The notes beneath the pieces are model-generated. The model did no database searches and had not been told where the DNA came from. It was given only the letters and a program-made list of their open reading frames with translations. From Marsupella aquatica (Eukaryota > Plantae > Marchantiophyta): DNA of 64,000 bases. Location: assembly GCA_973895155.1 (NCBI GenBank), contig OZ316893.1, forward strand, positions 24,293,520 through 24,357,519, read 5' to 3'. Positions 13,095-52,766 of the stretch are shown piece by piece. The first letter of the stretch is position 1. The number at the start of each line of letters is the position of its first letter. Position numbers and translations under genes: made by a program.

Positions 13095-14045
13095 TCTGTG
13101 GTTTGTGTCCATCCCAGCATTTTGTCAGATGTTTAGGTCTATGGGGGCTTTAGTTACAGACCCCCATTAGGGGTCCTTTCCAAAATTCCTAGCTTCACAG
13201 CGCGCCACATCATCATGGCATGCTCCAAACAGGAAGAGACCTGTTTTTGGATAAAATTAACTTCTGCATTCATGTTTGTGGCAACTTTGCTGTAAAAATT
13301 GGGACACCATGCCGTAAAAAAGAATGTAAAAAAATTGACATGCAAATCAAAAGACAAAAATAAAAACATAAAATAAATAATAAAAATATAAAATAATTTG
13401 GATATCAATTTTTGATTTGACATTGCTGAGTTAAATCAAAATGGAAACTCACGTATAATATGGTGTTGGAAAGATCTTGAAGAGACGGTCCTAATGAGCT
13501 CAGCATTGTCACCATTCGATAAAAATTGAGTAAGTAATTTGAAAAATAAATTTTACCCGTGATTTCGTAATCTCTAACGTGAATATAAATCTATGTTGTA
13601 CAATCCCTGAAATGTTGACCTGTTTGATGAGAATGAACCTCAAATTGACAGACTTTATCAAGTACTAATGAGATTATGAATTTATAATTTCTTTAGTTTT
13701 TTAATGAACTTAATATTGACAGATTTAGTTGAGTTAACCAACGAGCACCTTCTTGCTAAAGTGGGCAATTAAGTTACCCACACATTAAACAATATGATTT
13801 TAAGATTGATATTAATTATGGTTGCCTTGATAAGTTTGGCAACTGTTTCAAGTGTCAAACATTGACTTGTCCATTTTTGAATTTTTTTTCTTTAGATTTG
13901 GAGGTCCATCTAGGCTTCAGCTTTTAGATAACAGCCTCTAAAATAACATGGGGGTCCACGGATTAATTTAGATATTCTAGCCTTATGTTACTTTATGAAA
14001 TGAGAAATGACTTAGAGGTCTTGTGACAACTGGGATGGTACTCCG
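13095..14045. mobile_element. AT-rich degenerate DNA-transposon-like relic
   Basis: The motif GTCCATCCCAG at about 13107 has an approximate reverse complement (CTGGGATGGTAC) at about 14030. Related motifs recur at about 33563 and 34687. No transposase ORF is present. Confidence 0.35.
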
Positions 14046-15908: not shown

Positions 15909-17950
15909 ATGGCTCACGCTTGTGGCCATCTTCTTTCAGTGAAGCCGACTTCATTGGTTGGCCCTTCTGCTGCTGCTGTGGAGAGTACTCCAAAGACACA
16001 GTTGAAATGCTTCCGGTCTGCCTCCTCTTCCCCATCGGTCTCATTAACGGCTAATAAGAACGCAACGAGGATGACGGTCGTGACGGAAGGACGACTAGGA
16101 GGACAAGGAGGCGGAGCGGGCGTCCTGGAGAGACCAGGACTCGATCAGTCTAGCCCTGATACTGCACCTCGTACTGAAGAAGGTATGATTGGATTGCGTA
16201 TTGGCTCTCAGTATTCAGTTCTGAGCACTGCATTCTCGAGCGTTTGTCATGACCTTATGGCCAGTTGTGTTTAAGAGTGAATATTCAGAGATAGTTGAGT
16301 GGATGGATGTTGGAATAAGTGGGACCAACTGCGGACAGGGGACTAAATTTGTTGGAATTGAGTCACACTCCAACTGATGAGGGGGGTAGGCATCAAGGGC
16401 CTGTAGCTCAGTGGTAGAGCACTATGATGTACACTGGAGGTCCTAGGTTCAATTCCTAGCCGGTCCATGCTGTTGACAATTCCAGCATGGTATCAGAGCC
16501 AAAGAACAGGAGTTTCCCTTGTAGCAAGTGTGGCACAAGGGAGGGTGTTGGAAATGAGCCTCACTCGAACTGATGAGGGATGCAGGCATCAAGGGCCTGT
16601 AGCTCGGTGCTAGAGCACCACTATGTACACTGGAGGTCCTAGGTTCAATTCCTAGCTGGTCCAAGCTTTTGACAATTCCAACAAAATTGTGTTTCTGATT
16701 AGAGGGGTAGATGTTGTCACCTGATGGTTAATTTGTGAATTCTATGGGGGATGTGCGAGAGGTTGCAGAGTTTTTAAAAATCAACCGAACAGCATGGTTT
16801 TGTTACCGAGCTGAGAATCATTCCGGTTACTGGTCTGAATGGAGATGACTGAAATGAGGAGTAAACAGCTTGTGATTAATATTCTGCTACAAATCCACGC
16901 ATTAGCTTGGATGAATTCATCCGGATGGGTCAAAGAGATCCATAGATGTAGTCATTACTCTGAAAATCGAAAGTGTTATTTTCTAAGAATTTGCTCAAGG
17001 CGTTTGAAAAGACTCCAATAGATAGTTTCGTCTCGACTTGCTCTTTAAACAGTCCAGACAATACTGTACCTGCTCCGTCAGATTATCTAAATCTCTTCTA
17101 AATGTACGAGAGCCTCCAAGTGAAGTTGTCCTTAAGTGACTCTAGAGAACACTGCTCATCCTATCCTTCGTGGTCTCGCAGGTGGAGAGATGGGAAAGTC
17201 TCGCCAGACGGTGAAATTTGGTGGTGGCGATAGGTACCGTGTTCTACTCCTTGATCATGAACGTCATACTGAATCTCACGGTAAACAACTCTGAAACCTT
17301 ATTGGCTGTCAATCAAGGGATGTTCCTGTGATCTTGTGGGTTTGGAGGATTTCGTCTGTGACAATCATTCGTGTTTCAGTGATGATCATCTGCTCTAATC
17401 TAGTTATTGTTCTCTCTTGATTTCTTAACCGGGTATGTCGTTGTGGTCAGTCTTCTGATGGAACAATCCATGATCATTTTAACGTTTTTCGAGTCGAATG
17501 GTCCTTAACTCTGCCACTTGGAAATTGCAGTTGCAAAGGTGATTCCACGAGTAGTGCCCTCTGTTACCCCGGACGAAGCCAGAAAATGCTTTTACGAGTC
17601 TAGAGAGTTTGGCTTTGGATTGGTGACCATCGCAGTTAGGGTAAGAATTCCTATCCTCACCTCGCAAACTCGCTGAAGGTCTCTGTACAACAGATGAATT
17701 CAATGCCCTGCTTTGAATCTTTGAGTATTATAATCTCCGTCAATCTTGAATTAAATGGATGTTGAAGCGCTTTATGTATAACTTGCCTGATAGCCCATTG
17801 AAAACCTGCTGACTATTTCAATGTGGAGCCCACAGAAAACCTTCTGACTATTTCAATGTGGGAGTGCAGGAGCATGCTGAATTTTATGTTCAAATGTTGT
17901 GTCGCTATGGATTACGGTCCACAATGGAGCAGGACAGCACTGTCGCTTGA
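15909..17950 (+). CDS. ClpS-family ATP-dependent Clp protease adaptor, probably plastid-targeted (4 coding exons)
   Basis: Exons 15909-16182, 17182-17280, 17531-17640 and 17870-17950 give a Ser/Ala-rich transit-like N-terminus, then GGAGVLERP...GGGDRYRVLLLDHERHTESHVAKVIPRVVPSVTPDEARKCFYESREFGFGLVTIAVREHAEFYVQMLCRYGLRSTMEQD. This is a ClpS core of the variant lacking the canonical HNDN motif of CLPS1. Confidence 0.88.
16397..16467 (+). pseudogene. tRNA-like cassette in 5' LTR (A and B boxes intact, anticodon arm degenerate)
   Basis: Imperfect GGGCCTG/CCGGTCC acceptor stem, A-box TAGCTCAGTGG at 16404-16414, D-stem GCTC/GAGC, T-stem CTAGG/CCTAG and B-box GGTTCAATTCC at 16446-16456. The anticodon region ATGTACAC is ambiguous (GTA or TAC). 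Confidence 0.8.
16593..16663 (+). pseudogene. tRNA-like cassette in 3' LTR
   Basis: Second copy GGGCCTGTAGCTCGGTGCTAGAGC...GGTTCAATTCCTAGCTGGTCCA, followed by TTTT at 16667-16670. Confidence 0.78.
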
Positions 17951-18633: not shown

Positions 18634-19244
18634 AGTTGGCACTCTTGCTTTAAAAACTAAATCAACCATATCGATCCCAAACGTTGACTATACAGGCTCC
18701 CTGATCATTTTCTATACTCAATTATGGTAACCATCGTTCGACTTACGATAGTCTCCGATTCTTTTATACCATTTTGGCGAATAGATGCATTTGACAGAGC
18801 CCCAACGATATACAGAGACGGGAGACACTTGGATATGTTGGACTACCCAAAATCTTGGGGCGGAAAAGAGAAATGTCCAGGATCCCATCTAAATCTATTT
18901 TCAGTTTTTTATAGCTTGAAAGTCTCTTGCTCAAGACACCGTGTTGGGCTGTCCAAGTTATCCCTGCTTTAACAAGTTCAGGGATTTGTTGTCCGACTCT
19001 TGCGAATCAACCGGTACAACTTGGCAGCATTTGTACACATGCCAATGACAAAATTGTCACAGTAGTCGACTGGTTGAAATGCCAATCGATGCTGGGATTG
19101 CAGTCCTTTGTGACAATGGGAGCAGCAGATGCCATTACTGAATTGCTCCCGTCAATCTTGTGTTGCGGGATATCATTCATTCCATGAAGCCAGATTTCTC
19201 TTCCTCCAGAACGGATGCACAAATTCATCGCGGGTTTTAGTAGC
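18634..19244. repeat. About 600-bp dispersed direct repeat, copy 1
   Basis: Colinear with 28045-28595 (shared AGTTGGCACTCTTGCTTT, AAGTTATCCCTGCTTT, GGTACAACTTGGCAGCATTTGTACACA, GCCAATCGATGCTGGGATTGCA and AAGCCAGATTTCTCTTCCTCCAGAACGGATGCACAAA). Confidence 0.9.
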
Positions 19245-20126: not shown

Positions 20127-20331
20127 CTTCCTATTAAATGCTCCTAGATCACGGGTGAGGTCTCACCACAATGCTCCTAGATCACGGGTGAGGTCTCACC
20201 ACAAGCTTCCTATTAAATGCTCCTAGATCACGGGTGAGGTCTCACCACAAGCTTCCTATTAAATGCTCCTAGATCACGGGTGAGGTCTCATCACAATGCT
20301 CCTAGATCACGGGTGAGGTCTCACCACAAGC
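20127..20331. repeat. Minisatellite: 5 copies of a 33-bp core, in 33-bp or 45-bp units
   Basis: AATGCTCCTAGATCACGGGTGAGGTCTCACCAC occurs five times, with an optional AAGCTTCCTATTA linker. The core contains the inverted repeat GGTGAG-GT-CTCACC. Confidence 0.92.
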
Positions 20332-21951
20332 TGCAGCCTCTTGCAGGAATATGCCTGTGCAACCGTCACGTACTGACAGGATTAATATTGTACAATTAAG
20401 CTCATTTGAGAATTGTGTATTCTTTCTTCCATACTTTTGGGCTCATGGCCGTTTCTGTTTGTCAAGACAGCTCACGCATCACCGATCACTCATCACCGAA
20501 TCCATGCTCATACCACACACGATTCAACTGGATAATGATAGCTTCTTGTCCCAATGTTTGATTAGTTTACAGACTGATTTCTGCCAACAAGTCCAAGGGA
20601 CTTTCTTAGCAATTATCCATTGGAATTTCGGGTTTAAAAACAGGTGTAAGCTACACGAATACTTTAACTACGGACATGGCCCTTGAGAGTCAATCGTCTA
20701 TTTAAAAAATCCCAATAAAACAAGAAAAAATCCCCCCGGAACAAGCTGGGCAACGAACGGCATCAGAAGTGAAGCTTACTAGACCTATGGAGTCCTTGGA
20801 TGCATTGCCTACACACAGCAACACTTTTGAAGTTTTTTCGATTAGACATGATCGAAAAACTCGCTGCTGATAACTGCACAAATGTGAGACCAATTTCGCC
20901 TGGAAGCTCATGATGGCTTTGATTCATCACTAGAGACCGATCCAACGAGTAATTTGAGGGGACCATCGCAATCACATCTTGCTCTGTAAATATTAATTTT
21001 TCAATGTATTCACAAGATTGTAGAATAGAATCTGTGAAATTGATCTGATCTCGTTCTTCCCCATGGTTCACAATTTACAATCACTAATCATTCGAAGTCA
21101 ATGGTGTAAGTGGATACTTCTATCAGATGAAAGGGAAGGGTCTGGAATTTCTGGCCTAGGCTTCGAATTGTTTCGGAGTTAAGAAGCCCTTTTCCGCAAG
21201 AAGTTTTCGTCTCTGTATTTTGTTAGTCCTTAGCTGTTGTTCTCCATCGCTCTTTGATTCTGGAATTGGCAGCGGGTCCGAATTAGTTCCACACATACAC
21301 CCCTGATCAGTTCCATATATACATACCCACGTGGGCACCAATGTACTTTAGAAACAATTCATTGCTCAGTCATTCATTGCGAGATGGTCTTTGCACACGA
21401 AATTAAGTAATCTGACGAGAGTTTAATTAGAAAAACGTAATTTATGCAAAGAATCTCGATGCCAGTGAGAAGAGCTGGAACTGCATATGCCTCGTCTGAC
21501 CTTACATAAAGACATCTTCTCATCGTCCGGAAAGCTCTTAACGAATTATTGGGTGTCAACACAGAATTCGAGTAACCAGGATTATATCGCGCAGACAAAC
21601 TTCAAAATGTTTTATACATGACAAACGTAAGTTGTTTCCTGTAAATTTCAAGAAAAAGCAGTTTCATGAGTACCTGATTCACAATCGTCGAAATGTCCAT
21701 CACAGAATCGCTGTCCTTTGAGCAGCCCGAGGGCAAATCCATCAAGGGCACCACACCTGCTGCAGCATGTCAGGGTCGATACATGTAGAGTACAGATCGA
21801 AAAATGGGGCAGGGTACACAATCGATCATTCTAGATGGATGTACGCCGATATTATGCCAACCGATGGGATGACAGCTCTCTCACAATTCTGAGATGCATC
21901 TTTTAATTCTGACTCGTCAAACAAAACTATTTTACCCTTGTACTCCAGCTT

Positions 21952-24900
21952 TCAATGAGGTACAGAGCGCAATATTCGCTGATTAAATCCCTTCCGAAAG
22001 TGGCTCTCACACACCCAGCCGATCCTTGTTTCATGGCCTGGTTCTGTGTAGACAACTTTGCGCAGTTGGAAGTCATTCCAAAAGCTTGAGCCGTCATCCA
22101 GTTTAAGGATCTCCTTGAGGCCTTGCGTGTGGGGATCAACCTTCCAATACCTCTCCAGCGCCTTCAAGATTTGTTCTTCTGAAATTGGGCCGCGGGGGCG
22201 GCCAGGGTTCATCATCTCGTGCACCATTTCGCCATCCAGGGTGGGCATTTCAGGGACGGTGAACAAGCTCTGGATCCAGTCGTCTACCTGCGGCACTACA
22301 CCAACCATGCTCACACCGGCCCATAGGAGAGACACGGCAAGCTTTGCTATAGGTATGTTATAACCACCGGCCCTGGCATTCAACTTCACTGTCCTCCCCA
22401 GCTGACCTTCCACTTTATGCGATCCGTCTTTGTGATCGCAAAGCAGATGGAGCTTGATGGGAATCACCTTGCTCAAGTAGAGGCGTGTTTCCAATCTCCT
22501 GAGTGTCCCCACGTCTTCTATTGACGGATAGAAGAGAGTTGGTAATTGATCAGTACCACTCAACACTGAAGCTGTGGACTTTGAAACCAAGGGTACCAGA
22601 CTTCGTTGACCTTTGCTGCTAATCTTTTCGTACGAACCCTTTCCCTCCAGCAGGTCAAGAGCCCAGTCAGTATCGCTCACATCTTGTATTCTTTGGCTCC
22701 ATATATGTCGGTAGCCATTGTCCTCAGCTACTAGACCTTTCAGCTCTGCGATCGAAACAGAGTGCGCTTTCCTATCTATGCACAAGTGCAGATACTCGAC
22801 ACATATTGGCCTTATGACTGATTCAACAAGCTCCACTCCTTGGCAACCTTGAGGTGAAGCACAAAAAGTGCGTATTGTTTCCACCACATGCTCTCCTACA
22901 AATTCTGTAGACTTTGCAAACGGTTCCGATGATTTGACTAGAATGTCGATGAAATCGTCGGTGTCACCTGCATATTCCATGCACACCTCAATACCACTTT
23001 TTGCAAAGCATATGAGATTTCTTCCAACTTCAAAGCCAAGATTCTCAGTCCACCTCTTCGCATGTATGTAATTCCGCAAGTGAACCTGCACATAGGAACT
23101 GTGACTTTTAGAAACAACCAAGTAAAATTCAATGCAATCTCACAACATATCATATGCTGAAGAACGAAAAAGAACAATATTCGCAACGTCAACAAGGAGA
23201 GTCCATCTGTCGACAGGGAAAGTACACTTGCTCCCGATATGATCATCCAAACAAGATATATCACAAAAGATTTGAAACGACTTCACAACTTCCAGAATTA
23301 CCTGCAACCTTGGGAAAAATCCAGGCGTCAAAAATGTGGTTGATCTATTCTGACATTCAAGGCGACGGCCAAAATACTCCAAGTGCCCTTCCTGTTGTAC
23401 TTTCCATTGCAGTTGTCGTTTGCCTTTGGCAGCAGTCTCGTTGTCATCATCAAAAAGGGCTGGCATGAACAACAAAGAATACATATTTCCTGCTTCTTCG
23501 TGGGTGTTTTGAAAACACATTTCCAAGTGGATCATCAAATCTATTAACTTCTCGGGTGGGATAGATTGCTTGAGATCCATGCTCTGCAACGATTGCTCCA
23601 AATGTTGTTGCATGTCTTGCCTTTCCACAAAGCCCTCACAATGGGCAAGCTCACAAGACTCTGTGTGACTCCAGAAAGCACTAATGCACGTGGAAGCCTC
23701 TCTTTGGGGTTGGTCTGCTCCTTTGAATGCATTTATCAATGAACCCAAAACATCTATCCCAAACCAACTGGGGTTGGTCACAATGAAATCAGTTTTCTTG
23801 GAAAATATGATTTCGCCTAAATCGTGCAAATAAGCCAACACAATCTTCCAGCCGTCCTCTGAAAGCCATTCAAATTCTAGCTTTTCTTTACAGAACTTGT
23901 AGAACTCATCCAGGCTTAAAACAGGTTTCAGCGGATTTACTTTTGACCAGCCCTCCAAAAGATTTCGAACTTGCTCACATACTACATATTCTTGCTGCTG
24001 TCCCAAAATCTCTTCTAAGCTGTTGTTACTTGTAGTCAGTAGGCATTGCACATCTTCCGCAGAGTGAGCGTTCACAACATCAACGACCTCACACAAATTG
24101 AGAACATCCTTGAATACATTTTTCAGCTCACGCACCACACACTTTGCTCTGGAAATGGAATTAGTTTTCCCCCGAGTGTCGAGGGTATCTGTCTTCGTTA
24201 GAACAAATCTCACTCGAGGCAATTGACTCCCTCCACCTTGCCTGGAATTGGATGCCAGAAATCTCATCCAATACTCACACTCACCTCTGATGGCGCTTTC
24301 ATCTTTAATTTTACCCTTTGGGTCTCCATCATCTGGAGGGAATCGGCAACTACAGACGTACAGAAACAATGAATTCTTGACATCAGGGAACATATAGTCA
24401 TGAAGGGCATAATATTCCTTCTGCCCAGCAAAGTCCCAAACGGACTTTAAATATGGCTGTTTCTCAAGAACTACTACCTGAAATCCTCTAGTTCGGGCTG
24501 TCGATGCTTCGTGCGCATCGCTCCCAAGAAGGATTTGTTGCAGACAAGGGTACGATTGAATCAGTCTCTTCCAAAACATTTCGAACTGATGAGAGAAGGA
24601 AGTGCCATGCTCTATGCGCTTCATGGTCTTGGAAATTTCTGTTTTTCCTGCGATTTAAACGAACAGACCTAGCAGTTACATCACATTCATCAGACGAGTT
24701 TTAGTTCTACAAAAGCAACGCAAAATCATGTTGAGTCAACGGAGCAAAGATGATTGTGGACAGATACGGAGCACAATCTGTCCACAATGCAGCCACTGTT
24801 ACTGATGAACTTGTGGTTGGGTCTTTAGCAATCTATACATACAAGCTGGTTCAATACAGTCGAAACTTTTTCAAAATAGGTCTAGAGTAATCAGTTACAT

Positions 24901-26231
24901 GCACGTACTCACACACGTCCAATCAATTTGAAAATTCAGAATTGAGAGTAAGTTGAAGCTCGCATTGAAGAATGAATAAGAAAGAATAAACAGTGAACCT
25001 GCAAAGCCATATCCGCACAACACGATACGACCAGAAGTAGTTGGAGTTTGGGGTTGGCCCCTGAGCCGAGATCTATACTCCTTGTTGATCCTAAGCTCTT
25101 CATTGATTTGTCCCTGCCTGGATTCCAAACCAGTTCCGAGCAGGGAGACCTGCTCTAATCCGGTAAAGCTGTTTTGAAGCAGATCCAACAGAGACTCATA
25201 TACGTCGTCTCCAATCAATCCGTCACATCCCCTCAAGTAGAGATCCGTGAGGGTACTATTTGCTTTCAGGGCAGGAATAATTGTCTCCTTCCAATCTGTA
25301 GGCAGGAATGGCGCCAAGCAGGTCTTGCCGTTGCCTTCTCTATAGAGTCCTAAAAAGCGCAGGGACTTGTTTGTTTTGATCATGTGTGTCACAGACTCCA
25401 CACATTCCCGGTTGGCGTCCCATAAATACAACCTTTTCAAAATAATGTTCTTCAAGCTGTCTGAATTCGTTGCATCTTCCCCAACATCCGGGGTCAGTGG
25501 CTGGAGTAAGATCTTCATTCCTTCTCTCCCCATAGCTCCAACCCCAACACATAAAGTCTCCAATGTGGTGTTGCTCACCAATGCCGATGACTCGTGTTTT
25601 GCCGCTTCTAGAGAGCTACAAGTGTTATGCAGATACAATTCTTTGATTGTCGCGTTATTGGTCAGAAATTCTGCTACACACAAGATTCCTTCATCCAACA
25701 AGGGGTTGTCCGACAAAATGAGTATTTCGAGGGTGTTGTTTGACTTGAGCCCATGTAGTAGGCATCTCACACCTTCACCTCCCATCTCAACCTCTCTAAT
25801 GCGAAGCATGCGCAAAGACGAATTAGTTGACAAAGCATGGCCCAAGAGGGCGCACCCGTGGACTGTACCAAACACCTTATTTTCATGTAAGACAAGACGT
25901 GTAATATTGGTGTTGGAACATAAGTTGACACATAGAGCAGCTGCCTCGCTCACGCTCATAGCTTGAACGGCTTCAGAACAATAGAGTGGAACGGTAAATG
26001 AAATGTCACGACCGAGCGTAGCAAAATCACAGCTCTCCCCAACTCAGGATGTGTCGTGTTGGTCAACTTGTTCAGGTGCAAATTATCTCCACTGCTGTTG
26101 ACCTCATTCACTGTTTCAACAATACTCTGTTCCGAACATCCTGCTTCACGAAGAGCAGCCTCCATGCCCAGCTCTCCAACTCTGCTCCAATAAGCCACTG
26201 CTTCATCCCAGTAGCTGCTACTTACAGCCAT
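21952..26231 (-). CDS. TORNADO1-like LRR-ROC-COR (ROCO) GTPase; apparent frameshift near the 5' end
   Basis: Ribonuclease-inhibitor-type LRRs (LSTNSSLRMLRI, LKSNNTLEILILSDN, LTNNATIKELYLHNT). The P-loop GYGFAG/KT is split by intron 24998-24648. G3 is WDFAGQKEYYALHDYMF and G4 is VLTKTD. The COR motif LTPGFFPRLQ/VHLRN is split by intron 23301-23086. C-terminal IKLHLLCD..DGSHKVEGQLG and WVCESH resemble TRN1. Exons: about 26231-24999, 24647-23302 and 23085-21952. Confidence 0.88.
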
Positions 26232-26956: not shown

Positions 26957-27149
26957 TATTGTCGTAGGATGCTCTCCCTTCTTGAGTGATCGGATTGGAA
27001 TGCTTATGCACGCAGGTATGCACGTGGTTCTCAATTGGAGAAGAATCAAAATCTATTGTCGTAGGATGCTCTCCCTTCTTGAGTGATCGGATTGGAATGC
27101 TTGTGCACGCAGGTATGCACGTGGTTCTCAACTGGAGAAGAATCAAAAT
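26957..27149. repeat. About 97-bp near-perfect tandem duplication
   Basis: TATTGTCGTAGGATGCTCTCCCTT...GGAGAAGAATCAAAAT occurs twice with about 3 differences. Confidence 0.9.
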
Positions 27150-28044: not shown

Positions 28045-28595
28045 AGTTGGCACTCTTGCTTTTAAAAATGATCAAGAACATCAACCGGTGGCTATCCAGG
28101 CTCCCTGATCATTTCCTATACTGAAAGAGGGTAACAAAAGTGTCCAATTCTTATATACCATTGTGGCTGAGAGATGCATTCGCCAACGATATACAGTGTC
28201 GGGAGACGCCTGGATAAGTTGGAAAGGAGAAATGTCCAGGATCCCATCGAAATATATGTTCAGAATTTATTTTATGCAACTTGGAAATTTACTTGCTCAA
28301 GACACCATGTTGGGCTGTCTAAGTTATCCCTGCTTTGACAAGTTCAACATTTGTTGTCCGACCCTAGCGAATCAATTGGTACAACTTGGCAGCATTTGTA
28401 CACAGGCCAATTGTCACTGGAGTCGACTGGATGAATGCCAATCGATGCTGGGATTGCACTCCCTTGTCACAATGGGAGCTGCAGATGCCACTACTGAATT
28501 GTTTCCGTCAATCTTGTGTATGTCATTCATTCCATAAAGCCAGATTTCTCTTCCTCCAGAACGGATGCACAAAATTCATCGTGGGTTTAAGTAGC
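28045..28595. repeat. About 550-bp dispersed direct repeat, copy 2
   Basis: Diverged copy of 18634-19244 with several indels. Confidence 0.9.
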
Positions 28596-32773: not shown

Positions 32774-33078
32774 AATTTGGACGCGAAACGATTGCACGGG
32801 AACCTCGTGCACTCTTCATAAATGTGGGCGAGCATAATAATTACACACGGCACGTCTTCTTCTTCCTTGAAAACTAGTTTTGCTCCAAGAAAGCGCGCAG
32901 CAGAGGAGGTGAGGTGGAGCGGGGGCGGCACACGAGTAATTTGGACGCAAAAAGATTGCACGGGAACCTCGTGCACTTTTCATGAATGTGGGAGAGCATA
33001 ATAGTGTCACACCGGACGTCTTCTTCTTCCTTGAAAAGTAGTTGTACTCCATGAAATCGCACAGCAGAGGACGTGAGC
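32774..33078. repeat. About 164-bp diverged tandem duplication
   Basis: AATTTGGACGC..GATTGCACGGGAACCTCGTGCACT...CGTCTTCTTCTTCCTTGAAAA...CAGCAGAGGA.GTGAG occurs at 32774 and 32938. Confidence 0.88.
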
Positions 33079-33305
33079 AGAATCGGGGACGACACACGAG
33101 ACACGAAAGGAACCCAGAAAGAAACAGAGTGCAGCTCTGAAGCTATCTGTCTGAAGCAAACGAAGACAACCAGAGTAATAAAGTTGCACATTTCTCGAAC
33201 ATCCTAAAAGAATGGTCTACAAAGAAATCAGGGTAAAAATATAAGATTACCAAAGAAGAGCCCCATAGACACACAGGTTGATCCTTGATGAACCCAAGAG
33301 CAGAA

Positions 33306-39585: not shown

Positions 39586-40899
39586 AAGACTGACCTTCCG
39601 ACTATTGTCCACCCGTTTGCTCACGTCTGCTTCACCAATTCACTTCCAAATGATTGTGAAGGTGGATAAATTTGTAATCACTTCTATTTACCAATTGCGC
39701 TGAGCTCAGGGTGTTCGAATTTCTTGTGCTTAAACACCTGGCCTATCAAACAGAATCTGAGTTTTAAGAGATGATTGTTAAAAGCTGAGCGAGCAGGACT
39801 GGTGCATCCCTTCATGCACCTCCTGGTTACATCAAAATAATAGGTTCCCTCGGGTTGGAGCTAAATTTCCAAAGCTGACCGTGAATATCGCGTTCGTGGG
39901 CAATTTGGTGCCATGGCCTTTCTAAAATAATGTAGCTGTCGCGCAGAACTGCAATAGTTCTTATTCTGGGAGGTGGACCTAGGAACTGTCAAAGGTTCTC
40001 CTAATGCTGCTCAATTCAATGCATTCTCAACATGACGATATTTTGCTACGAACACAGCAGGGATTGCTCTTTTCAATTAAAATTTGGCCTTCCGAAAGTC
40101 TGCTGAAGTAGACCACACGATGACACCAAAACAATGAACGTCAACATACGTACCATGATCAGCTCCGGGCTGTTCACGCTAGAGAGAACACATTATATAA
40201 TTTTGAGTTTGACATTTACCGTACTTCATGGATTAGGAATGAGGATTCGCGCAATCTATCTCTCAGGAGACGTCCTGCGTGCGTTGGACAGAACAAATTA
40301 TACAATTTTGAGTTTGACAATTACCGTTCTTCATGGATTAGGAACAAGGATTCTCAGGAGAGTCCTGCGTGCGTTGGATGCCAGTGTGGTGTACATCGTG
40401 AAGCAGGGCAACTGTTCAGATTCAATGCCCGAAACTTCGTGTCCTCGAGATGATGAATCATGTTGACGTTCGCTGCAAAGGCACGGAAAACAATTTGCAC
40501 GGTTTTTGTGGACCCAAGTGTAGAGAGGCTGCCAATTGAGACTTTCAGGGCTGTTCAACGGGCAGAGACTCATCATCCGGACAGAGACTCATCATCAGGC
40601 TCCCGATCTGATTGGCATCGCCGCCCACCTGCCGACCCTGAAAGCAATGTCAAAGGATGGAGAAGCGTCTTTTGCTGCTGCAGGTCTTACGAGGTAGAGG
40701 CTACAGTACTAGCAATGGCCAGGGGTTTGCTTTGCAAAAGTGAGAGCTGGACGAATCTTTTTATGGTCACATTTACGACTCACATGCCCACAGCAGCCCA
40801 CATGCTAATGCAGGGCAGGAAAAATGGGAATGAGGGCTCGGCATGGAGGGTATTATTGTATAGCTAGCTCAATACCCGTGGATTGCACAAAAGAAGTAG

Positions 40900-41160
40900 T
40901 GTCAGCCGATGTTGTTGAGAAAAAAAGATGTCGTGTCAGTCAAGAGGAGGTTGTGGAGAGAAAAGATGTCGTGTTGGTCAAGCGGTCGTTGAGAAAGAAC
41001 GATGTTGCGTCGGCCAAGAGGATGTTGAGAAAAAAGATGTTGTATCGGCCAAGAAGTCATTGAGAAAAAAGATGTTGTGTCGGCCACTATGTTGTTAAAA
41101 TTTTTGTTGTTGTGTCGGTCAAGATGTCGTTGAGAAAAAAAGATGTAGTGTCGGCAAAGC
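40900..41160. repeat. Degenerate array of about 35-bp units
   Basis: The motif TTGAGAAAAAAAGATGT(C/T)GTGTCGGCCAAG recurs. Confidence 0.7.
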
Positions 41161-41231
41161 ACAGGTTGCAAAATCCCGTTCAGAATAAAGAAGTCATTTT
41201 GCCAAAGATACCATTATATGAAATATGTTTT

Positions 41232-41412
41232 TAAGAGAAAAGGTCTCATTTTACCAAAGATATAGTGAAGTAAAAGATGTTACAAGAGAAAAGTTTTCAT
41301 TTTGCCAAAGATATAGTGAAGTAAAAGATGTTACAAGAGAAAAGGTGTCATTTTGTCAAAGATATAGTGAAGTAAAAGATGTTACAAGAAAAAATGTGTC
41401 ATTTCACCCAAG
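41232..41412. repeat. 51-bp tandem repeat, about 3.5 copies
   Basis: AAGAGAAAAGGTGTCATTTTGCCAAAGATATAGTGAAGTAAAAGATGTTAC is repeated and appears as a 17-aa periodicity in ORF 41225-41458. Confidence 0.9.
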
Positions 41413-43515
41413 GTGTCTATATGTGAAAGATGTATATGTGAAAGATGTAGTGAAATAAAAATTTAAGGAGAAAAGGAGCAAGTCTTTTTCTTTGTTTTGC
41501 TTTTTTCCCAAAATGCCCCTGCATTTGAATGGCGACCACTCTATAAATTGGCGCAACGTTTATTATTGGTTTCAGGTTTAGGGTTTTAGGGTTTAGCAAA
41601 GATGACCATTATGTCGGTATCCTTTCAATCCCCGTGCAGTGCATAAAAGATGTTGTTTGGTTAAAGATGTTGAGAAATAGATTGTGGTGCAAAAGATATC
41701 GTTGAATAACAAAAAATTGTGAAATTATATTATTGCACAAAAACTTTTGTTGAGTGAAAGATATCATTGTGCAAAATAGTGACTACGGCACCCACAAAAG
41801 TTATCTTTTCTTTTTTTTCTTTTTTCTTTTTTTTCTCTTTGCACAAAAAAATTCTTGAATAAAAGATGTCATTGCACAAAAGACTGGCTATGACAACCTC
41901 AAAAGTATAACAAAGTGAGAGGTGTTTTTTTTCCCCTCCCTTTTTTCTCTTTTGTTCATTTTAAACCTTAACCTCCCCCTTTTCCCCCTTTTCCTATTTT
42001 TGGTCTTTTCTTTTTCTCATTCACCATCACTCCACTTGTCCGCTGCCCCTCCCCACCCATGCGAGATTGGAGCCCTTCGAGGGGCTGCCCTACATTGCGA
42101 GTGTGCCCCTCGCCCGACACCTTGCCATCAACGCCCATGCCATGCGCTTCATTATGTCTTTGGGCCTTAATACTTTTGTTTTGGGAATTGAAAATGACAC
42201 TATAAATGACTATAAAAATCACCACAAATATGGGGAGAATAGTTTTTTATAGATCTAGTGACTAAAATATTATTAACAATTAAGCTACTTTTACCAGTAT
42301 TACACAAAATTATACTGCACACAATATTGAATATGTACTATACTTATTTGCTTGTAAGTACAATATTTACTTGCATGGATCATGGAGGGAGTATCCTCCT
42401 TGATCCGAGTGCATTGATTTTTGTGTATTGTGTTAAAAGTCTTTCAATTTTTGTGTGTGTCTGGTGTGATTATTCTTGCTTGTCTTGGGCACTTGTGCAA
42501 CTTTTTGTGAGTCACATTAAACTCAATTCACACTTTGGCTTTATTGCTTACCTTTGACCAGATTTTTTAATTTTTGTGCCCTGCAAATTTAAATGATGAG
42601 CACTGTAAAAAGTGGCGCAATTGTGTATTATAGTTTAGGATGCGAGCAAACAAGAATTTTGTCAGTGAGGAGAGTGTTGTTAACAAGAGACTAATGAAAT
42701 TTAGTTTGCTATTTGCTGCCCTTTTCTGGTGTTTTTTCATGACATCAAATGGCTACTGTAGCTGGCTAGCAAATTGAGTAGTCCCCAAATGGATGTTATC
42801 AACCAGGTTGTTGTTAGCAAGACAGTTGGATACAGAAAAATTAGGGGTCATGTGAGAACAAAAATTGCTTGTGCAAGTAATCTTTTTATTTGTTTCCTTG
42901 CAGGCTACAATGATCCATATGAATAAGTAGTCTGATATTAATTGTCAAGCTTCGTCTTGGGGACAAGTTCGTGGGTGCTTACTGCTGTACTGAGATTTGC
43001 CATCTCCTTTCTTCAATTTGAATAGTAAAATTTCCACATCTGCAATCTTATTTCTAGAAAGGGCAGGAACACAATATGCATTAAGTGTGGACCCCATCAA
43101 CACATTCCCCCCCCCCCTCCATTTTCTAGGCAGTCTCAAACCTCCTGGGTTTGGCTCCAGTCATGGTCACACAAATTTTTGGGGAACTAAAGTGGTGGAC
43201 AAATATGTGTTTCCCATTGGGACCAGAGTCCAAACCTCATAGTATTGGGCAGGGAATTTCTTGCAGCCTTCAATTTTGAAATGCCATATTGGGTCTCTTG
43301 TATTTGGGATCCGGCCTCAGGGATACATTGAGCCACTTTATCCAACCTATTGGTGAGAGCCATGAATTACATTGAAGGAGACTATTCCCTGGAAGTCATT
43401 AACGACTTTCCTATATTGGCTGCCCGTACACCGTCCAAAAAAATCCATACATTGTGTCACCTGCTTATCAAACGATTTACACGACAAATACGTATTTACT
43501 CCTACTAAAATCATT

Positions 43516-44758
43516 TGTTATCGTATGACGGGAACGTGGAGGGACGCTATTAGGATTCTATTGCATGTAGGATGAGTATGTTTGATTCCGCTCCCGGAAG
43601 TGTAATTTTTGATCAAGTCTACCGACTAGCCCCTCTGCTTTTGATCAAGTCCCATGGACTACGCCACACACACACTCCTACTGGTCGCTGGTGGAGTGCT
43701 GTCACCACCCCCCCTACTCACACAGTCGACCAATCCGTGCAAGTAATCCTTAGACACTTCTTGGGAAAGAACACAATCGTGAGCCGAAAAAAATAACGCC
43801 ACACCAAAACTTGAGGAATCAAACCAAATCCATATCTTTTGGCAAAAAGTGATAACACATTGCAAGGACAACCCAGTCTCCTGCCGTCTGCCCAACTCCT
43901 GCCTCACTGGGGCAAGCGCTACACCTCTACCTCACTACTCTGGCTTGAATTCCCCTTCTGGCTATGAGCTAACTTCCCTAACACCAACACTAGACTGAGT
44001 TCTCCCCGTTTTCGCCCCTCGGTACCCTGCTGCGCCCGGTACCCTCCTGTCCCGGGTAGCCTCCTGGTCTTGGTACCCTCCTGTCCCGGGTACCCTGCTG
44101 CTCCTGGTACCCTCCTGGTCACGGTACCCCCTCGTCTTGGGTACCCTCCTTCGCCCTCGGTACCCTGCTGCGCCCGGTACCCTCCTGTCCCGGGTAGCCT
44201 CCTGGTCTTGGTACCCTCCTGTCCCGAGTACCCTGCTGCTCCCGGTATCCTCCTGGTCATGGTACCCCCTCGGTACCCTCCTGGTCTTGGGTACCCTCCT
44301 TCGCCCTCGGTACCCTGCTGCGCCCGGTACCCTTGCCTCTGGTACTCCTGGTACCCCCTGGCTCCTCCTGCTCACGGTACCCCCTGGCTCCGGTACCCCT
44401 GGTCTTGGTACCCCCTCGGTACCCCCTGGGTACCCTCAATCATGGTACCCCTCGGTATGGTACCCTCCCGGTACCCCCTCGCCCTCGCGGTGGTCTCGCT
44501 GCCCCGGTACCCTGGCTCCTCCCGGCTCCTCCTGCCTTGGCTTGCGGTAGCACCTAGGCTTTTAACAAAAACAAACAAAACACCCCCTTATATACCCTTC
44601 TACCCTTAACACTTAAAGTTCCTCTCCCTACTCCTTGCTATTGGGGTCCCCGGGAATGGCCATAAAACAATGGAGAATCCCCCAAAGCAGGGCCTTCCAT
44701 CAAGTTCTATTTCTAAGGGGCCCAACCTATAAAATACTTCGGTCCATCATAGGTGACG
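43516..44758 (-). mobile_element. Solo-LTR-like segment containing a GC-rich repeat array
   Basis: It starts TGTTATCGTATGACGG and ends CCATCATAGGTGACG (imperfect inverted termini). A minus-strand TATATAAGGGGG lies at about 44592. The flanks TCATT and GAATT only partly match. Confidence 0.35.
44013..44530. repeat. GC-rich higher-order tandem repeat built from GGTACC-centred subunits of about 17-18 bp
   Basis: A higher-order unit of about 138-150 bp starting CGCCCTCGGTACCCTGCTGCGCCCGGTACC occurs at about 44013, 44152 and 44302. There are many GGTACC palindromes and strong C/T versus G/A strand skew. Confidence 0.92.
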
Positions 44759-47700: not shown

Positions 47701-49983
47701 TGAGCTGACGGTGCGATTTCTAGAATGCTGGATAGATTTCAGAGGATAAATAATGAAAAGGGCGGATAAATTCTTCTACACTAGTGTTCACGGCAACGGC
47801 TGCAGATTTTCTACAGCCTTTGACGACACTAATCATTTTAATAATGGTACGAGCGGCGCTGTTGGAATGCCATAACACTAAAAGTGTGAATTTGTTCCGA
47901 GCATCCGAGGGAAGTCCGTGATAAGTGGAAGTGGATTTTCCTAATGTTCGGACGAGGCCAGAAAACAAACAACCGGGAAACATTCCATCCGAGAGAATAA
48001 CAGCTACCATCATAATTACCAAAGTTGATGACTTCTTCACAAAGCTTTGTACAGTTGGCATTTGGAGAGGCAAAATGTTTTTTGGCTAAAAGGAACAAGA
48101 AGCGCGCCGTACTTTTTGAGTCGGAGGGGGATTTCTGTGAAAGGTCCGTTCATTGTGGTGTTGACTGTACAAAACTGTAGTGATCTAAAGTTTTTTATTT
48201 GGGTGGAACGACTTCGATGTGAGTGAAGAGGACGTTCGCAGCCACTTGTGTAGCGGAAATCGGCTGCCTCTCAGCGATGAGTTCGTGAACATTTTATTCA
48301 GAATATGAGAAGCCCGTGGCGCAGCACTGACCATGAATGGGAACAGGCGATGGTGGTCTAGGTGTCTAGGCGTCATACTGCCCCCATGTTTATCCAGACA
48401 GCGTAATGCTATTATGCTAAGCCTGCCCACAGCAATTGCAAACTGCTCATCAGATCTGGTCGTCTAGTAAGAAATCAATCAAGAGGACATCCCTCCATCC
48501 TTATCACGGATCTTTACGACTGTTGATTATTTGACACTATCAATAGTCTCTACTGTAGTCCTTGCTTTTCTTCCTCAATTCTTGGTCTGGTAGTCTCTTT
48601 TTGTCCGCTCTTGGTAGGTGTGTCTCTTCTTACCCTTCCTCAATAGGACCCCCTGATTTCGTTGCCACTTGGGAAGGTCGGTAATGACGCGTTACTGTAG
48701 CTCTCGCATGCAAACTATGAGACAAGCGAAATCGCTGTCTGTTTTCTGCTTATGGTGGTCGTCCACTACAAGGAACCTTTTATCATGGCAGCGGAAGACC
48801 TACCCAGTACCCACGTTTCAGTAAGCAGCCAAGAGTGACCAACCTACAGAGTACAGACAATCAGTGGCAAATTACAATAATTGCGTAAGCTATAATAAGA
48901 GGCCAAGGTTCCGGGAAGCATCATGGGCAACCTGTGAAAATGTGGCAAACTACAATAAATGGCAAGCTCTAAGAAGGGAACTATGTTCCGAGACAACCCG
49001 TCAATAATGTGATACCTTTTGACCGTGTGTGACTAATGACTTGCAGGTCTAGGAGAGCTATAATTGTTACCCTCCCATAGGCCCTGTAACTTTTGCCAAA
49101 TTAGTGATTGGCAACGTTTGTTAGAACACGTTTTCGTCACGGACCGAGAGCTTCTTCAGACCTGTAGCCACCTCCATGGGCTCTAGGGACCGTGTGAGTT
49201 TGACCAGCGGATGCCAAGCTGTTGAATGGGTTTTCGCTTCTGGAAAGCTGTCAGTGGAGAATCTTAGAAACTCGTATACATGTAGATATTTTTGGTATAA
49301 AGAGATGAGATGCCACCGTAATTTGCAATAGCAGCATAGAATATCCAATTGGAAGCTTGGGCACGGAAGACAGTGGAGCATTTGTGTCTCAGCATTGAAA
49401 GAAATATTTGTATCACGACAACAAGTTTGACTCGGTTAATCCTTTTGCCAGGATACAAGCCGAGTGCTACAGGAGAGGCGCAAACGAATTCGATCGATCG
49501 CTTAGCTGGGTGAGGAATTGATTGATACGTGACCAAAAGCTTCGTTGAGACGACCGAGTGCGCAGGAGGCGCAGGAGGCCTTTTAAGAATAGGAGTTGAC
49601 CGGTGGCTTGCGGAGCACTTCAAGGAAAGTCGTGCACTAGACAGCGGTGAGGACAGCGTGGTACCGCGTCACTCCCCATTTCGTACTCGAAGTTCTAAAT
49701 TCAGGGCAAGGTCACTATCTCATAAAGAATCGGTACCCACTTCAGCTCGGGAAGCAGTGAAGCATTCCCATTGTGGATCATCACACTCAGAAGACGTAAG
49801 ATTCTCTGTTTGCAACGCTGGAGCACAAGATTTGGGAAGCTGATTTCATTGCAATCTTGGCTAGGAGCTGGTTGAAATCTGAGCAAGGTGGTCAGGTCGT
49901 TTATAAGGACGGAATTGGTCGAAATCGAGAAGGTTGACGTACTGCGAACATCAGTTTTGGAGTGGTTTTAGCCTCACATCACA

Positions 49984-52766
49984 ATGACGAAGGGGTGGAC
50001 AAAGTTTGGGATGCTAGCACCTGTTTGTATTGTGGCAGTGCTCGCATTGTTGGCGGGAGGCAGCAGCGCAGAGATGTGTGGTGTGGACTCCACAGACCCG
50101 GAGAGTATGAACTGCAATGCTGGCATGGAAGGCAGTGCGGGCATGGAAGGCGGTACAGTTTACGAGTCGCTGACAGTTGCACGAGTACCACTAGTCTCTG
50201 GCCTCTCGTACAATTTCTACGACAACTCATGCCCCCAGTACAAAACTATCATCCAACAAGCAGTCAGCCAGGCTCTACAATCAAATCCCTTGCACGCCGC
50301 TGGCCTCACTCGGATCATGTTCCACGATTGTTTCGTCCAGGTGTGTAACGCATTGCATTGCTCAATCATTCAGATTCATTGAAGTTTGTACTGCTGAAGT
50401 GTTTCCTGGCCTGTGATTGGGCTGATCATCTGAATATCTTTCCATTTGTTTCTAAGGATGACTGTCTGGGATGGATTAAGCCACCGCCATGCCGCTTTAG
50501 AGCGTTTAGTTTCATTATTCTCGTCATCAATGAAACAGGCCAAGCGTAGCTCCAGCATGATCCGTTCGCATTTTTATCGAATCTGGGACACTGATCTTTT
50601 CGTCTAGTTCGAACTGAATCGTTACTTTGTCTTCGTTTAGCCCTGTTTTCCTCCTGAGAAATGTGTCCACCGGTACGTTAAAAGTGTCGATCGTCCCTCG
50701 GTAGATATGTTCCTTTCTAACTACTGTAGTTGAAAGGCTTCTAATGGTGATTTTTGTTTGGCCTCGAGAAGACTTGTGATATCCGGTCAGTTCACAGTCT
50801 CTAGTTACTTCCCAGGTGTGCTGCCTCTCTCACAGCCTGTGCACTAATTTGTTTACATCAATGATAGCGATGTAGTTCGCTTCTCCGAGGAGTCGATTCT
50901 TCGCTGAGGACAATGCCTTCAATCCATAACGTGCGTTCGAAAGATGTCATAGTTAAACGAGAGACCCTCATTTTGACGTCCTTGTAGAGCTTCCTTGATA
51001 CGCGTAAACCAGGCTGGAAAGAGCAAGAAATGCTCGAAATGGTTACGTCTCGTGAAAAGTGGTCTATATACAATATAATAGTGATCAAAACCGATTGGTC
51101 ATGAGCAGGGATTTGAGGGTCTTTTGCAGCGTGTTGGTAGTAGCGTGATCAATGGTTGGGTTTTGCCAGCGGTCTGACCGTTTTCATCAATTGATTTCTG
51201 ACCAACTTTTCATTAATGCAGGGGTGTGATGCGTCTGTACTCCTGACCGGCGCAAATTCAGAGCAGGTAGACACTCCCAACCAAACTCTCAGGCAAGAAT
51301 CGCTCCAGCTGATCAACCAGATAAAGTCTACATTGGAGCAGACATGTCCCAACACTGTCTCCTGCGCTGACGTTATTTCTGAGGCGGCCGCTGAGGCCAT
51401 CAAGCAGGTATGTATCTTCAGAGTTGACGAGACTCTGGACATTTGCTCGTGTAGGCAATTGATTTCTTTAATGTCGATGAATTCCTCGAAGTTTTCTATG
51501 ATGTAGATTTTCGATTGCCACCAATATCGCCACCGGCCTAGGAAGGGCATGGTGGCTTTTCAGCAACACCGCCCTGTTATAGTTGCTTAATCACGTCGTC
51601 CATCTGTTCCTCGAAGTCTTTCCTGCTGGAGAAGGGTTTTGTAAATAATGTCTACTGGGTCACGTAGTACATCAATTGGATTGTGTACTGTATCCTGTGA
51701 TGAAACTCGAATATCTGGGTTCCCGGTTATTTTACGAAATCCGATTCCCAATGTTTTGGTACAGTGGTTGATTTGTTATACCCGATGTGATTTATTCAGG
51801 GATTGATTCAATACCGCCTATCTGAGCTTCAGGCTGATTGACGCTGAGATCATTGCCGTGATTGCAGGTGAACGGGCCAAAAGTAACAATGCCGATGGGC
51901 CGTCGCGACGGCACCTCGATGGCGTCGGCGAATACCGTCAACAACGGCCTTCCCTCCCCCTTTAAAAATGTCTCGGAAAATATGCCTATCTTCACCAACC
52001 TCGGCCTCGACTACAAAGACTACGTGGCTCTCTCTGGTAATCAGCTTGAAATTGAAATTGACTGTCAGCAAAGATTTGAGAGCATATGTATTGTGCAAAC
52101 TGATAGGCTACTGTGTATTCAGCTTCATCGTTCTTCATACTCATGGGCTATTGTTTCTACAAGGGGCCTTATGCTCTTCGGGTACATTCTGTTATGCTGA
52201 TGCCCAGTGTTGCGAATTGGGAGACTTGAAATGAGTCTCTTTCTCATCACGCAACTGGAAGAAGCAGTGAGCGCTTCTTGCTGCAACCGAAAATGGAGCC
52301 CCTCAATCTATTGCTGTGAAATTCCAGGCATTTATGTCTGCCAACCGATCCCACGAATTCTCATGTGTGGTTTCCTGTCTGTTGCACAGGCGCGCACACG
52401 CTCGGCCAGGCGCATTGCGCGGTCTTCAGCGGCCGTCTGAATCCACTGGACGCCAATTTGGACGTCAAGCTCGCGAGCTCTCTCCAGCAGCTGTGTCAGT
52501 CCGGCAACAACGCGCACTCTCTTGATGACACAATGAACACCTTCGACAATAAATACTACAAGCAAGTACTCTCGGGAGACGTCCTGCTCCAGTCGGACTC
52601 CTCCTTGGATTTGGACAGCCACACTTCGTATCTCGTGAAGCAATACGCCAGGAGCAACAGCAAATTTGATTCCCAGTTCGTGCGCTCGTTCCTGAAGATG
52701 AGTCAGCTTCATGTTCTCACCGGCAGCGCTGGCACAATCCGGAAAACCTGTACGGTTGCCAATTAA
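49984..52766 (+). CDS. Class III secretory heme peroxidase (4 exons)
   Basis: Signal peptide. Exons 49984-50340, 51222-51407, 51868-52036 and 52390-52766 have the typical class III intron positions. Motifs: LSYNFYDNSCP, RIMFHDCFVQ/GCDASVLL (distal Arg and His), CPNTVSCAD, GRRDG, VALS/GAHTLGQAHC (proximal His), FDNKYY, LLQSD and GTIRKTC. Confidence 0.96.

Follow-up and report, generated by a model that had tools for sequence, protein, structure and literature searches.

Cassandra, Helenus, and Ajax make up the TRIMp3 class (PMC10886601). Helenus elements have been described as TRIMs with tRNA-derived sequence in their LTRs; they are 311 to 1263 bp long and have 5-bp duplications of the target site (TSDs) in fungi and plants (Kojima 2024, PMC10886601), and families are delimited by clustering at 75% identity over 75% of the length. 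In the accessible text of that article, the only plant Helenus is Helenus-1_SMo from Selaginella moellendorffii, the use of RNA polymerase III (Pol III) is untested for any Helenus, and Cassandra is the only TRIM of its sort with demonstrated Pol III transcripts. A further article, PMC13570524, cites Helenus only in passing in the portion available.

We analyzed a 64-kb stretch of liverwort DNA (referred to as the window) that contains a complete retroelement with a tRNA-like sequence, here called a cassette, in each LTR. Judged by its sequence, the element is of the Helenus kind and belongs to a family distinct from Helenus-1_SMo. All seven Helenus features that could be tested were found: TRIM size, tRNA sequence in each LTR (Rfam), a PBS and a PPT, a TSD (AAATT, for the window copy only), dispersal as a family, a cassette that is not itself the primer (it fits the PBS at 4 bases), and boxes A and B, which are full in LTR1, whereas LTR2 has lost the YGG motif that the majority of the family keeps. 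The initial annotation had named Helenus as the precedent for a tRNA-carrying TRIM and suggested that the family or host might be undescribed. Both suggestions hold: the architecture agrees with the Helenus description in every respect that could be compared (PMC10886601), the family is distinct, and no liverwort or bryophyte Helenus or other tRNA-bearing TRIM was found in the literature searched, a body that lies outside Repbase, Dfam, and subscription journals. The same literature held no report of RNase P processing of tRNA-bearing TRIMs. The element is apparently the first of the Helenus kind to be recorded from a bryophyte. It extends rather than overturns current understanding, since both the architecture and the mechanism proposed below are already in print.

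Like the window element, Cassandra is a plant TRIM with a piece of a Pol III gene in each LTR (PMC7215508, PMC10886601). In contrast to the window element, it carries a piece of 5S rRNA rather than of tRNA, is 565 to 860 bp long, and has been reported from vascular plants; the words "moss" and "liverwort" do not occur in the accessible text of PMC7215508. Assignment to Cassandra or Ajax was rejected, as Rfam gave no 5S match at E values up to 1. tRNA-derived SINEs share with the element a tRNA head with boxes A and B and a non-autonomous lifestyle; unlike it, they lack LTRs, a PBS, and a PPT, and their mobility depends on target-primed reverse transcription. This assignment was rejected on the LTR structure of the window element. 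Retrozymes have a hammerhead ribozyme in their LTRs, and they were rejected because no hammerhead was among the 5 Rfam matches in the window.

Structure of the element

The element is 334 bp long and occupies positions 16350 to 16683 (Table 1). The initial annotation had placed the TSDs, LTRs, PBS, interior, and PPT exactly where we find them. Its length of 334 bp was also right; the span it gave for that length, 16345 to 16688, takes in the TSDs as well. With two LTRs, fewer than 1000 bp, and no coding capacity, the element is a TRIM by size. An 8-bp inverted repeat lies at the TG..CA termini of the LTRs. We take TGGTATCAGAGC, the PBS, to be the complement of the 3' end of the plant initiator tRNA-Met. 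Identical 5-mers were found at the spacing of the TSDs at 84 of 63654 window positions (0.13%), which is the chance rate. If the cassette marks the start of transcription, the 47 bp that precede it would be U3, and the trailer that follows it is the putative U5. As the initial annotation had estimated, the two LTRs differ at 16 of 138 positions, and we counted no gaps; 8 of the differences are transitions and 8 are transversions (K2P distance, 0.126).

Table 1. Positions, in the window, of the element, its parts, and the gene that holds it
Feature	Position	Strand	Remarks
5' TSD, AAATT	16345-16349	+	5 bp
LTR1 (5' LTR), TG...CA	16350-16487	+	138 bp
Sequence preceding cassette 1	16350-16396	+	47 bp; varies between family members
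Cassette 1	16397-16467	+	71 nt; Rfam RF00005, 47.4 bits, E 1.2e-8
Pol III box A	16404-16414	+	Intact; fits Helenus TRGCY and YGG motifs
Pol III box B	16446-16456	+	GGTTC, as in Helenus
Trailer after cassette 1	16468-16487	+	20 bp, without a T4 run
Interior	16488-16545	+	58 bp, non-coding
PBS, TGGTATCAGAGC	16488-16499	+	Adjoins LTR1 directly
PPT, AAGGGAGGG	16537-16545	+	Adjoins LTR2
LTR2 (3' LTR), end TTCCAACA	16546-16683	+	138 bp; TTCCAACA forms a terminal inverted repeat with TGTTGGAA
Cassette 2	16593-16663	+	71 nt; Rfam RF00005, 44.9 bits; called by ARAGORN
TTTT	16667-16670	+	First T4 run 3' of cassette 1
3' TSD, AAATT	16684-16688	+	A short deletion in organism B overlaps it
GT-AG intron	16183-17181	+	First coding intron, open spliced frame; contains the element in the sense direction
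Host gene exons (four)	15909-16182, 17182-17280, 17531-17640, 17870-17950	+	187 codons

Neither a further copy of the LTR (nhmmer) nor a second PBS was present elsewhere in the 64-kb window. Other occurrences of TGTTGGAA (38559/38757, 13464, 47860, and 56776/57037) were considered as LTR pairs and rejected, not being LTR pairs. The string TGTTGGAAT, which is the same as the LTR start, also occurs at 16308 to 16316, 42 bp upstream of LTR1; this was not significant and is likely due to chance, because 54 of 500 shuffles reached the same result.

tRNA-like cassettes and Pol III boxes

Both cassettes matched the Rfam tRNA model over its full length (model positions 1 to 71), with scores above the gathering score of 29. 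ARAGORN made a single call, cassette 2 (tRNA-???, anticodon undetermined, 2 nt), and left cassette 1 uncalled. The initial annotation had expected a tRNA scanner to mis-call two tRNA pseudogenes; ARAGORN gives one. The LTRs exceed the Rfam tRNA threshold and would inflate tRNA counts in liverwort annotations, as shown in rust fungi. A functional tRNA gene was rejected as an explanation, given the 16-nt anticodon arm, the tRNA-??? call of ARAGORN for one LTR, and its lack of a call for the other. Self-priming was also rejected; a CCA-tailed cassette fits the PBS at those 4 bases only. In the search for the source tRNA, the best phage and plasmid matches were 72 to 82% identical and belonged to tRNAs of various specificities (Met, Thr, Asn, Lys, and Phe); none among them could be named as the source.

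In both cassettes, the D stem has 4 of 4 pairs, the T stem 5 of 5, and the acceptor stem 6 of 7; the acceptor stem, absent from the earlier description, includes a G3.U70 pair in cassette 1. That description, with A and B boxes, intact D and T stems, and a decayed anticodon arm, fits both cassettes except at box A of LTR2, which has lost its GG (TGG to TGC at 16610). Two changes in box A of cassette 2, at 16606 and 16610, are private to the window copy, and the family has the canonical base at these positions in >95% of the depth of sequencing run X1.

The T4 run in LTR2 is a candidate Pol III stop. No T4 occurs between 16397 and 16666; T4-free stretches of 270 nt are common by chance (1465 of 6373 windows). 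A T4 directly after the cassette is found in some family members, in LTR2 here, in the Selaginella Helenus, and in 6 of 6 Puccinia graminis consensus LTRs.

A dispersed family in public sequencing runs

Evidence for a family came from contigs of public sequencing runs aligned on the locus, for 7 of 13 listed runs; the runs left out were air metagenomes with a small share (X5, X6, X8, and X9), together with X7 and X13. The four runs of organisms A and B gave 277, 187, 435, and 432 contigs on the locus, with all identity bands represented. Summed depth in X1 rose from ~8 in the flanks to 6176 over the cassette, which is a crude sign and not a copy number, and the other three runs had similar depth steps. 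Organisms C, D, and E contributed 4, 72, and 92 contigs, respectively, on the interior and LTR2; the family seems rare in organism C.

The ends of the contigs coincided with those of the LTRs. In X1, the comparison of the interior and LTR2 gave 18 contigs that exit with the last LTR base, with an agreement of only 0.41 among the flanks they run into, and 5 contigs that enter at the first LTR base. The same junction of LTR end and PBS was found in contigs of X1, X11, and X12, and two X1 contigs hold interior and LTR together, with 36 and 27 differences. Loose contig ends before 16388 to 16397 reflect the variable upstream part of the LTR. In organism B, the flank differs by 1 to 2% and both element junctions are present. 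Runs X3 and X4, both of organism B, have a short deletion at 16686 to 16700, over the 3' TSD, with the element kept. A solo LTR could be read into both flanks in one case only, X10 record 9 (organism C); it is full length, has 11 differences, and lacks a matching TSD.

No second full copy flanked by TSDs was present among the contigs of the runs examined, and no joint that skips the element, and thus no empty site, was among the joints listed. Pattern scans of metagenome, genome, and viral contig collections gave 0 matches. Membership of the window element in a dispersed multi-copy family is supported. The initial annotation had called the locus a mobile element and was prepared to give up this call if there were no other LTR-PBS-PPT-LTR copy with a different TSD and the orthologous intron held a genuine tRNA; dispersed copies were found, with contigs that exit at the LTR ends, and the objection falls because multi-copy dispersal is supported. 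A multi-copy family in several organisms makes it testable whether plant Helenus elements are one old lineage or of fungal origin, and also whether the cassette acts as a promoter only or as an RNA structure too.

Comparison with described Helenus families

We compared the element with Helenus-1_SMo. The two are similar in length (325 bp for Helenus-1_SMo and 334 bp here), TSD length (5 bp), PBS (complementary to the 3' end of a Met-type tRNA, with 11 of the first 12 bases shared), LTR ends (TGTT.GAA and TTCCAACA, respectively), and the placement of the cassette toward the LTR's 3' end. Outside the anticodon arm, 51 of 58 cassette bases are equal (by eye), and G3.U70 is present in both. The 7 differences comprise two compensatory pairs, one G.U wobble, one loop position, and one broken pair (by eye). 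In contrast, Helenus-1_SMo has an LTR that is 120 bp long rather than 138 bp; its interior is 85 bp rather than 58 bp, with likeness only in the PBS and PPT; its anticodon arm is unrelated and 1 nt longer; the upstream part of its LTR is unrelated; its consensus has a T4 after the cassette, found here in LTR2 only; and its host is a lycophyte rather than a liverwort. The two elements are not alike over their whole length, as the upstream LTR part, anticodon arm, and interior could not be aligned (by eye).

Helenus-1_AmAr, from the fungus Amylostereum areolatum (PMC10886601), has a cassette that equals that of the window at 50 of 58 bases, with two 1-nt insertions (by eye). It also has a PBS of the 3'-end Met type, similar LTR termini, and no T4 directly after the cassette. 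It differs in its longer LTR, in having A3-U70 in place of G3.U70, in its anticodon arm and interior, and in its fungal host. For a bivalve control, Helenus-4_CVi, 41 of 58 cassette bases are equal to those of the window (by eye). The string ggaggtcct occurs twice in the accessible supplement of PMC10886601, in exactly Helenus-1_SMo and Helenus-1_AmAr, and three other motifs of the window LTRs have 0 occurrences there; line breaks in the supplement can hide matches for all of these motifs.

The weight of the Selaginella cassette match is limited, since the phage and plasmid tRNAs described above reach a similar identity over the whole length. Moreover, the cassettes of Helenus-1_SMo and Helenus-1_AmAr are equal at 56 of 58 bases and are nearer to each other than either is to the window cassette; hence, a simple vertical plant lineage is unsupported. 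Similar tRNAs may have been captured independently, the lineage may be old and shared, or there may have been transfer between fungi and plants. We regard as quite unlikely a broader scenario in which the liverwort, Selaginella, and Amylostereum elements would be one Met-primed Helenus lineage that predates the split of liverworts and vascular plants, or that crossed between a fungus and an early land plant, with the cassette kept as a folded tRNA mimic (an acceptor-T helix, with G3.U70 in the plants, switchable by a U5-PBS hairpin) for tRNA-processing enzymes or packaging by the partner and not as a mere promoter.

The words "acceptor" and "cloverleaf" do not appear in the accessible main text of PMC10886601, and Figure S1 of that article draws acceptor or cloverleaf stems for some families. 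In the supplement, all six P. graminis consensus LTRs have 6 to 7 acceptor pairs, and in each a T4 follows the cassette (by eye). In four of these six cassettes, the second acceptor pair is a C.A mismatch and the remaining pairs covary, an observation absent from the accessible main-text discussion.

Proposed mechanism and alternatives

We consider it probable that the element is an old copy of a Helenus-type TRIM, with cassettes that likely serve as Pol III promoters, and that it was likely mobilized by the proteins of an autonomous, Met-tRNA-primed element. Pol III would start at approximately 16397 in LTR1; read the PBS, interior, PPT, U3, and cassette 2; and stop at the first T4 (16667) or in the flank, giving an RNA of ~274 nt. 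The terminal redundancy (R) of this RNA would be the cassette itself. The host initiator tRNA-Met would prime a strong-stop DNA of ~91 nt, which would jump by way of cassette homology, and the PPT would prime the plus strand. Reverse transcriptase and integrase would be supplied by the autonomous element, and the borrowed integrase, most likely of Ty1/copia and otherwise of a chromovirus, would make the 5-bp duplication. As described in the accessible part of PMC6317226, every copia lineage primed by a whole tRNA uses tRNA-Met, as do most chromoviruses but not the non-chromoviruses, and 5-bp TSDs are found in 93.4% of elements. On these distributions of tRNA-Met priming and 5-bp TSDs (PMC6317226), the partner would be a copia element or a chromovirus. 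No autonomous partner was seen in the 64-kb window or in the contigs examined. With a T4 behind the 5' LTR cassette, Pol III would fail to reach the PBS unless termination were leaky. As an alternative source of RNA, the sense placement in an intron allows Pol II read-through.

A second reading, which we consider unlikely, retains the TRIM and has the cassette used as folded RNA, not solely as a DNA promoter. The acceptor-T helix would be kept for cuts of the RNase P or RNase Z type that set the RNA ends, whatever the polymerase, or for packaging as a tRNA mimic; the 5' cassette would be hidden by a U5-PBS hairpin, and the 3' one would fold. The acceptor (6/7) and T (5/5) stems persist in both LTRs despite the decayed anticodon arm, and in cassette 1 the five outermost acceptor pairs have a predicted pairing probability of 0.91 to 0.92; however, the folding energy of the cassettes is no better than that of shuffles (z scores of 0.11 and 0.06), and pairing of the D stem is predicted at 0.03 to 0.06. 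Relative to Helenus-1_SMo, 4 of the 7 differences outside the anticodon arm form the two compensatory pairs (by eye), which speaks for this reading, but the pairs may also predate capture, having arisen in the source tRNAs. Similarly, all six P. graminis consensus LTRs keep 6 to 7 of 7 acceptor pairs with differing sequences (by eye), whereas neither an acceptor stem nor a T4 is evident in the fish Helenus families (by eye).

The predicted U5-PBS hairpin (16462 to 16494; -13.7 kcal/mol; z score, -2.69; 2 of 200 shuffles, for a segment picked post hoc) joins the 3' end of the cassette and U5 to the LTR end and the first PBS bases, and it competes with the acceptor strand in the 5' LTR only. Among 10 U5 strings (2 from the window LTRs and 8 from run contigs), all 3 strings with G136 have C121 and all 3 with T121 have A136, consistent with pairing, but 4 of the 10 lack the 121-136 pairing, and the two pairing types may equal two subfamilies.

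It is distinctly unlikely, in our judgment, that the element is an ordinary Pol II TRIM in which an ancestral LTR took up the head of a tRNA-derived SINE or a tRNA pseudogene, now a passenger irrelevant to replication. The sense orientation of the window copy in an intron and the loss of the box A GG in LTR2 would suit such a history, and the Pol III products of those copies that have a T4 after the cassette would be useless as genomes. Nevertheless, between copies and between organisms no other part of the LTR is as well conserved as the cassette, and the part upstream of it varies, the boxes match those of lycophyte and fungal families, and the 47 bp upstream of the cassette leave little space for a Pol II promoter. 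We consider it highly improbable that a tRNA pseudogene or SINE was duplicated locally in tandem and so imitates LTRs, and this reading is already contradicted: the window has several short tandem duplications, and an empty site is missing from the joints listed, but the TG..CA ends with their 8-bp inverted repeat, the PBS and PPT at exact junctions, the 5-bp TSD, and the many contigs that exit at exact LTR ends or hold the LTR-PBS junction in other organisms all argue against it.

Age of the insertion

Most differences between the LTRs are private to one LTR relative to the family majority: LTR positions 16, 61, 65, 74, 77, and 112 in LTR2, and positions 35, 36, and 38 in LTR1. These private differences fit mutation after insertion. 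At LTR positions 13 and 86, both window LTRs have minority bases. The U5 differences at positions 119, 123, and 136 match alternative types found among other copies. Some of the count may therefore stem from template switching or conversion, which makes LTR divergence an imperfect clock. Substitution rates of 1.3e-8 to 2.7e-9 per site per year would give roughly 5 to 23 My, which is a soft date. The insertion is common to organisms A and B. An old insertion, as first proposed, is probably right in view of the private differences and the sharing between A and B, even though part of the 16 mismatches, those in U5, is not clock-like.

Host gene and genomic context

The element lies in a gene that we take to be ClpS-like, similar to plant ClpS-like proteins; its exons, searched singly, had no Pfam, PDB, or Atlas match. 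Among the 7989 best candidates scored for one long open reading frame of the window, Calypogeia fissa gave the best one, at 75% with 96% of the query covered, and Marchantia, Riccia, and mosses gave matches of 37 to 57%. On this one protein, the host is probably a leafy liverwort.

Three long frames on the minus strand (21952 to 26043) had weak LRR, Roc, and COR-A matches, all below the Pfam curated cut-offs, with a stop at 23140 to 23142 between frames of 504 and 395 amino acids; presumably, they represent a TORNADO1-like LRR-Roc-COR gene. A dispersed direct repeat of ~600 bp (18634 to 19244 and 28045 to 28595; 77.5% identity) is probably another repeat family, and a dispersed inverted repeat of 167 bp (89 to 255 and 13164 to 13329) has 75% identity. 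A minisatellite and short tandem duplications are located at 44011 to 44534, 20127 to 20332, 26957 to 27149, 32774 to 33100, 692 to 831, and 40890 to 41433. Finally, two plus-strand frames, at 49972 to 50382 and 52320 to 52766, read like what we assume to be exons of a class III plant peroxidase.
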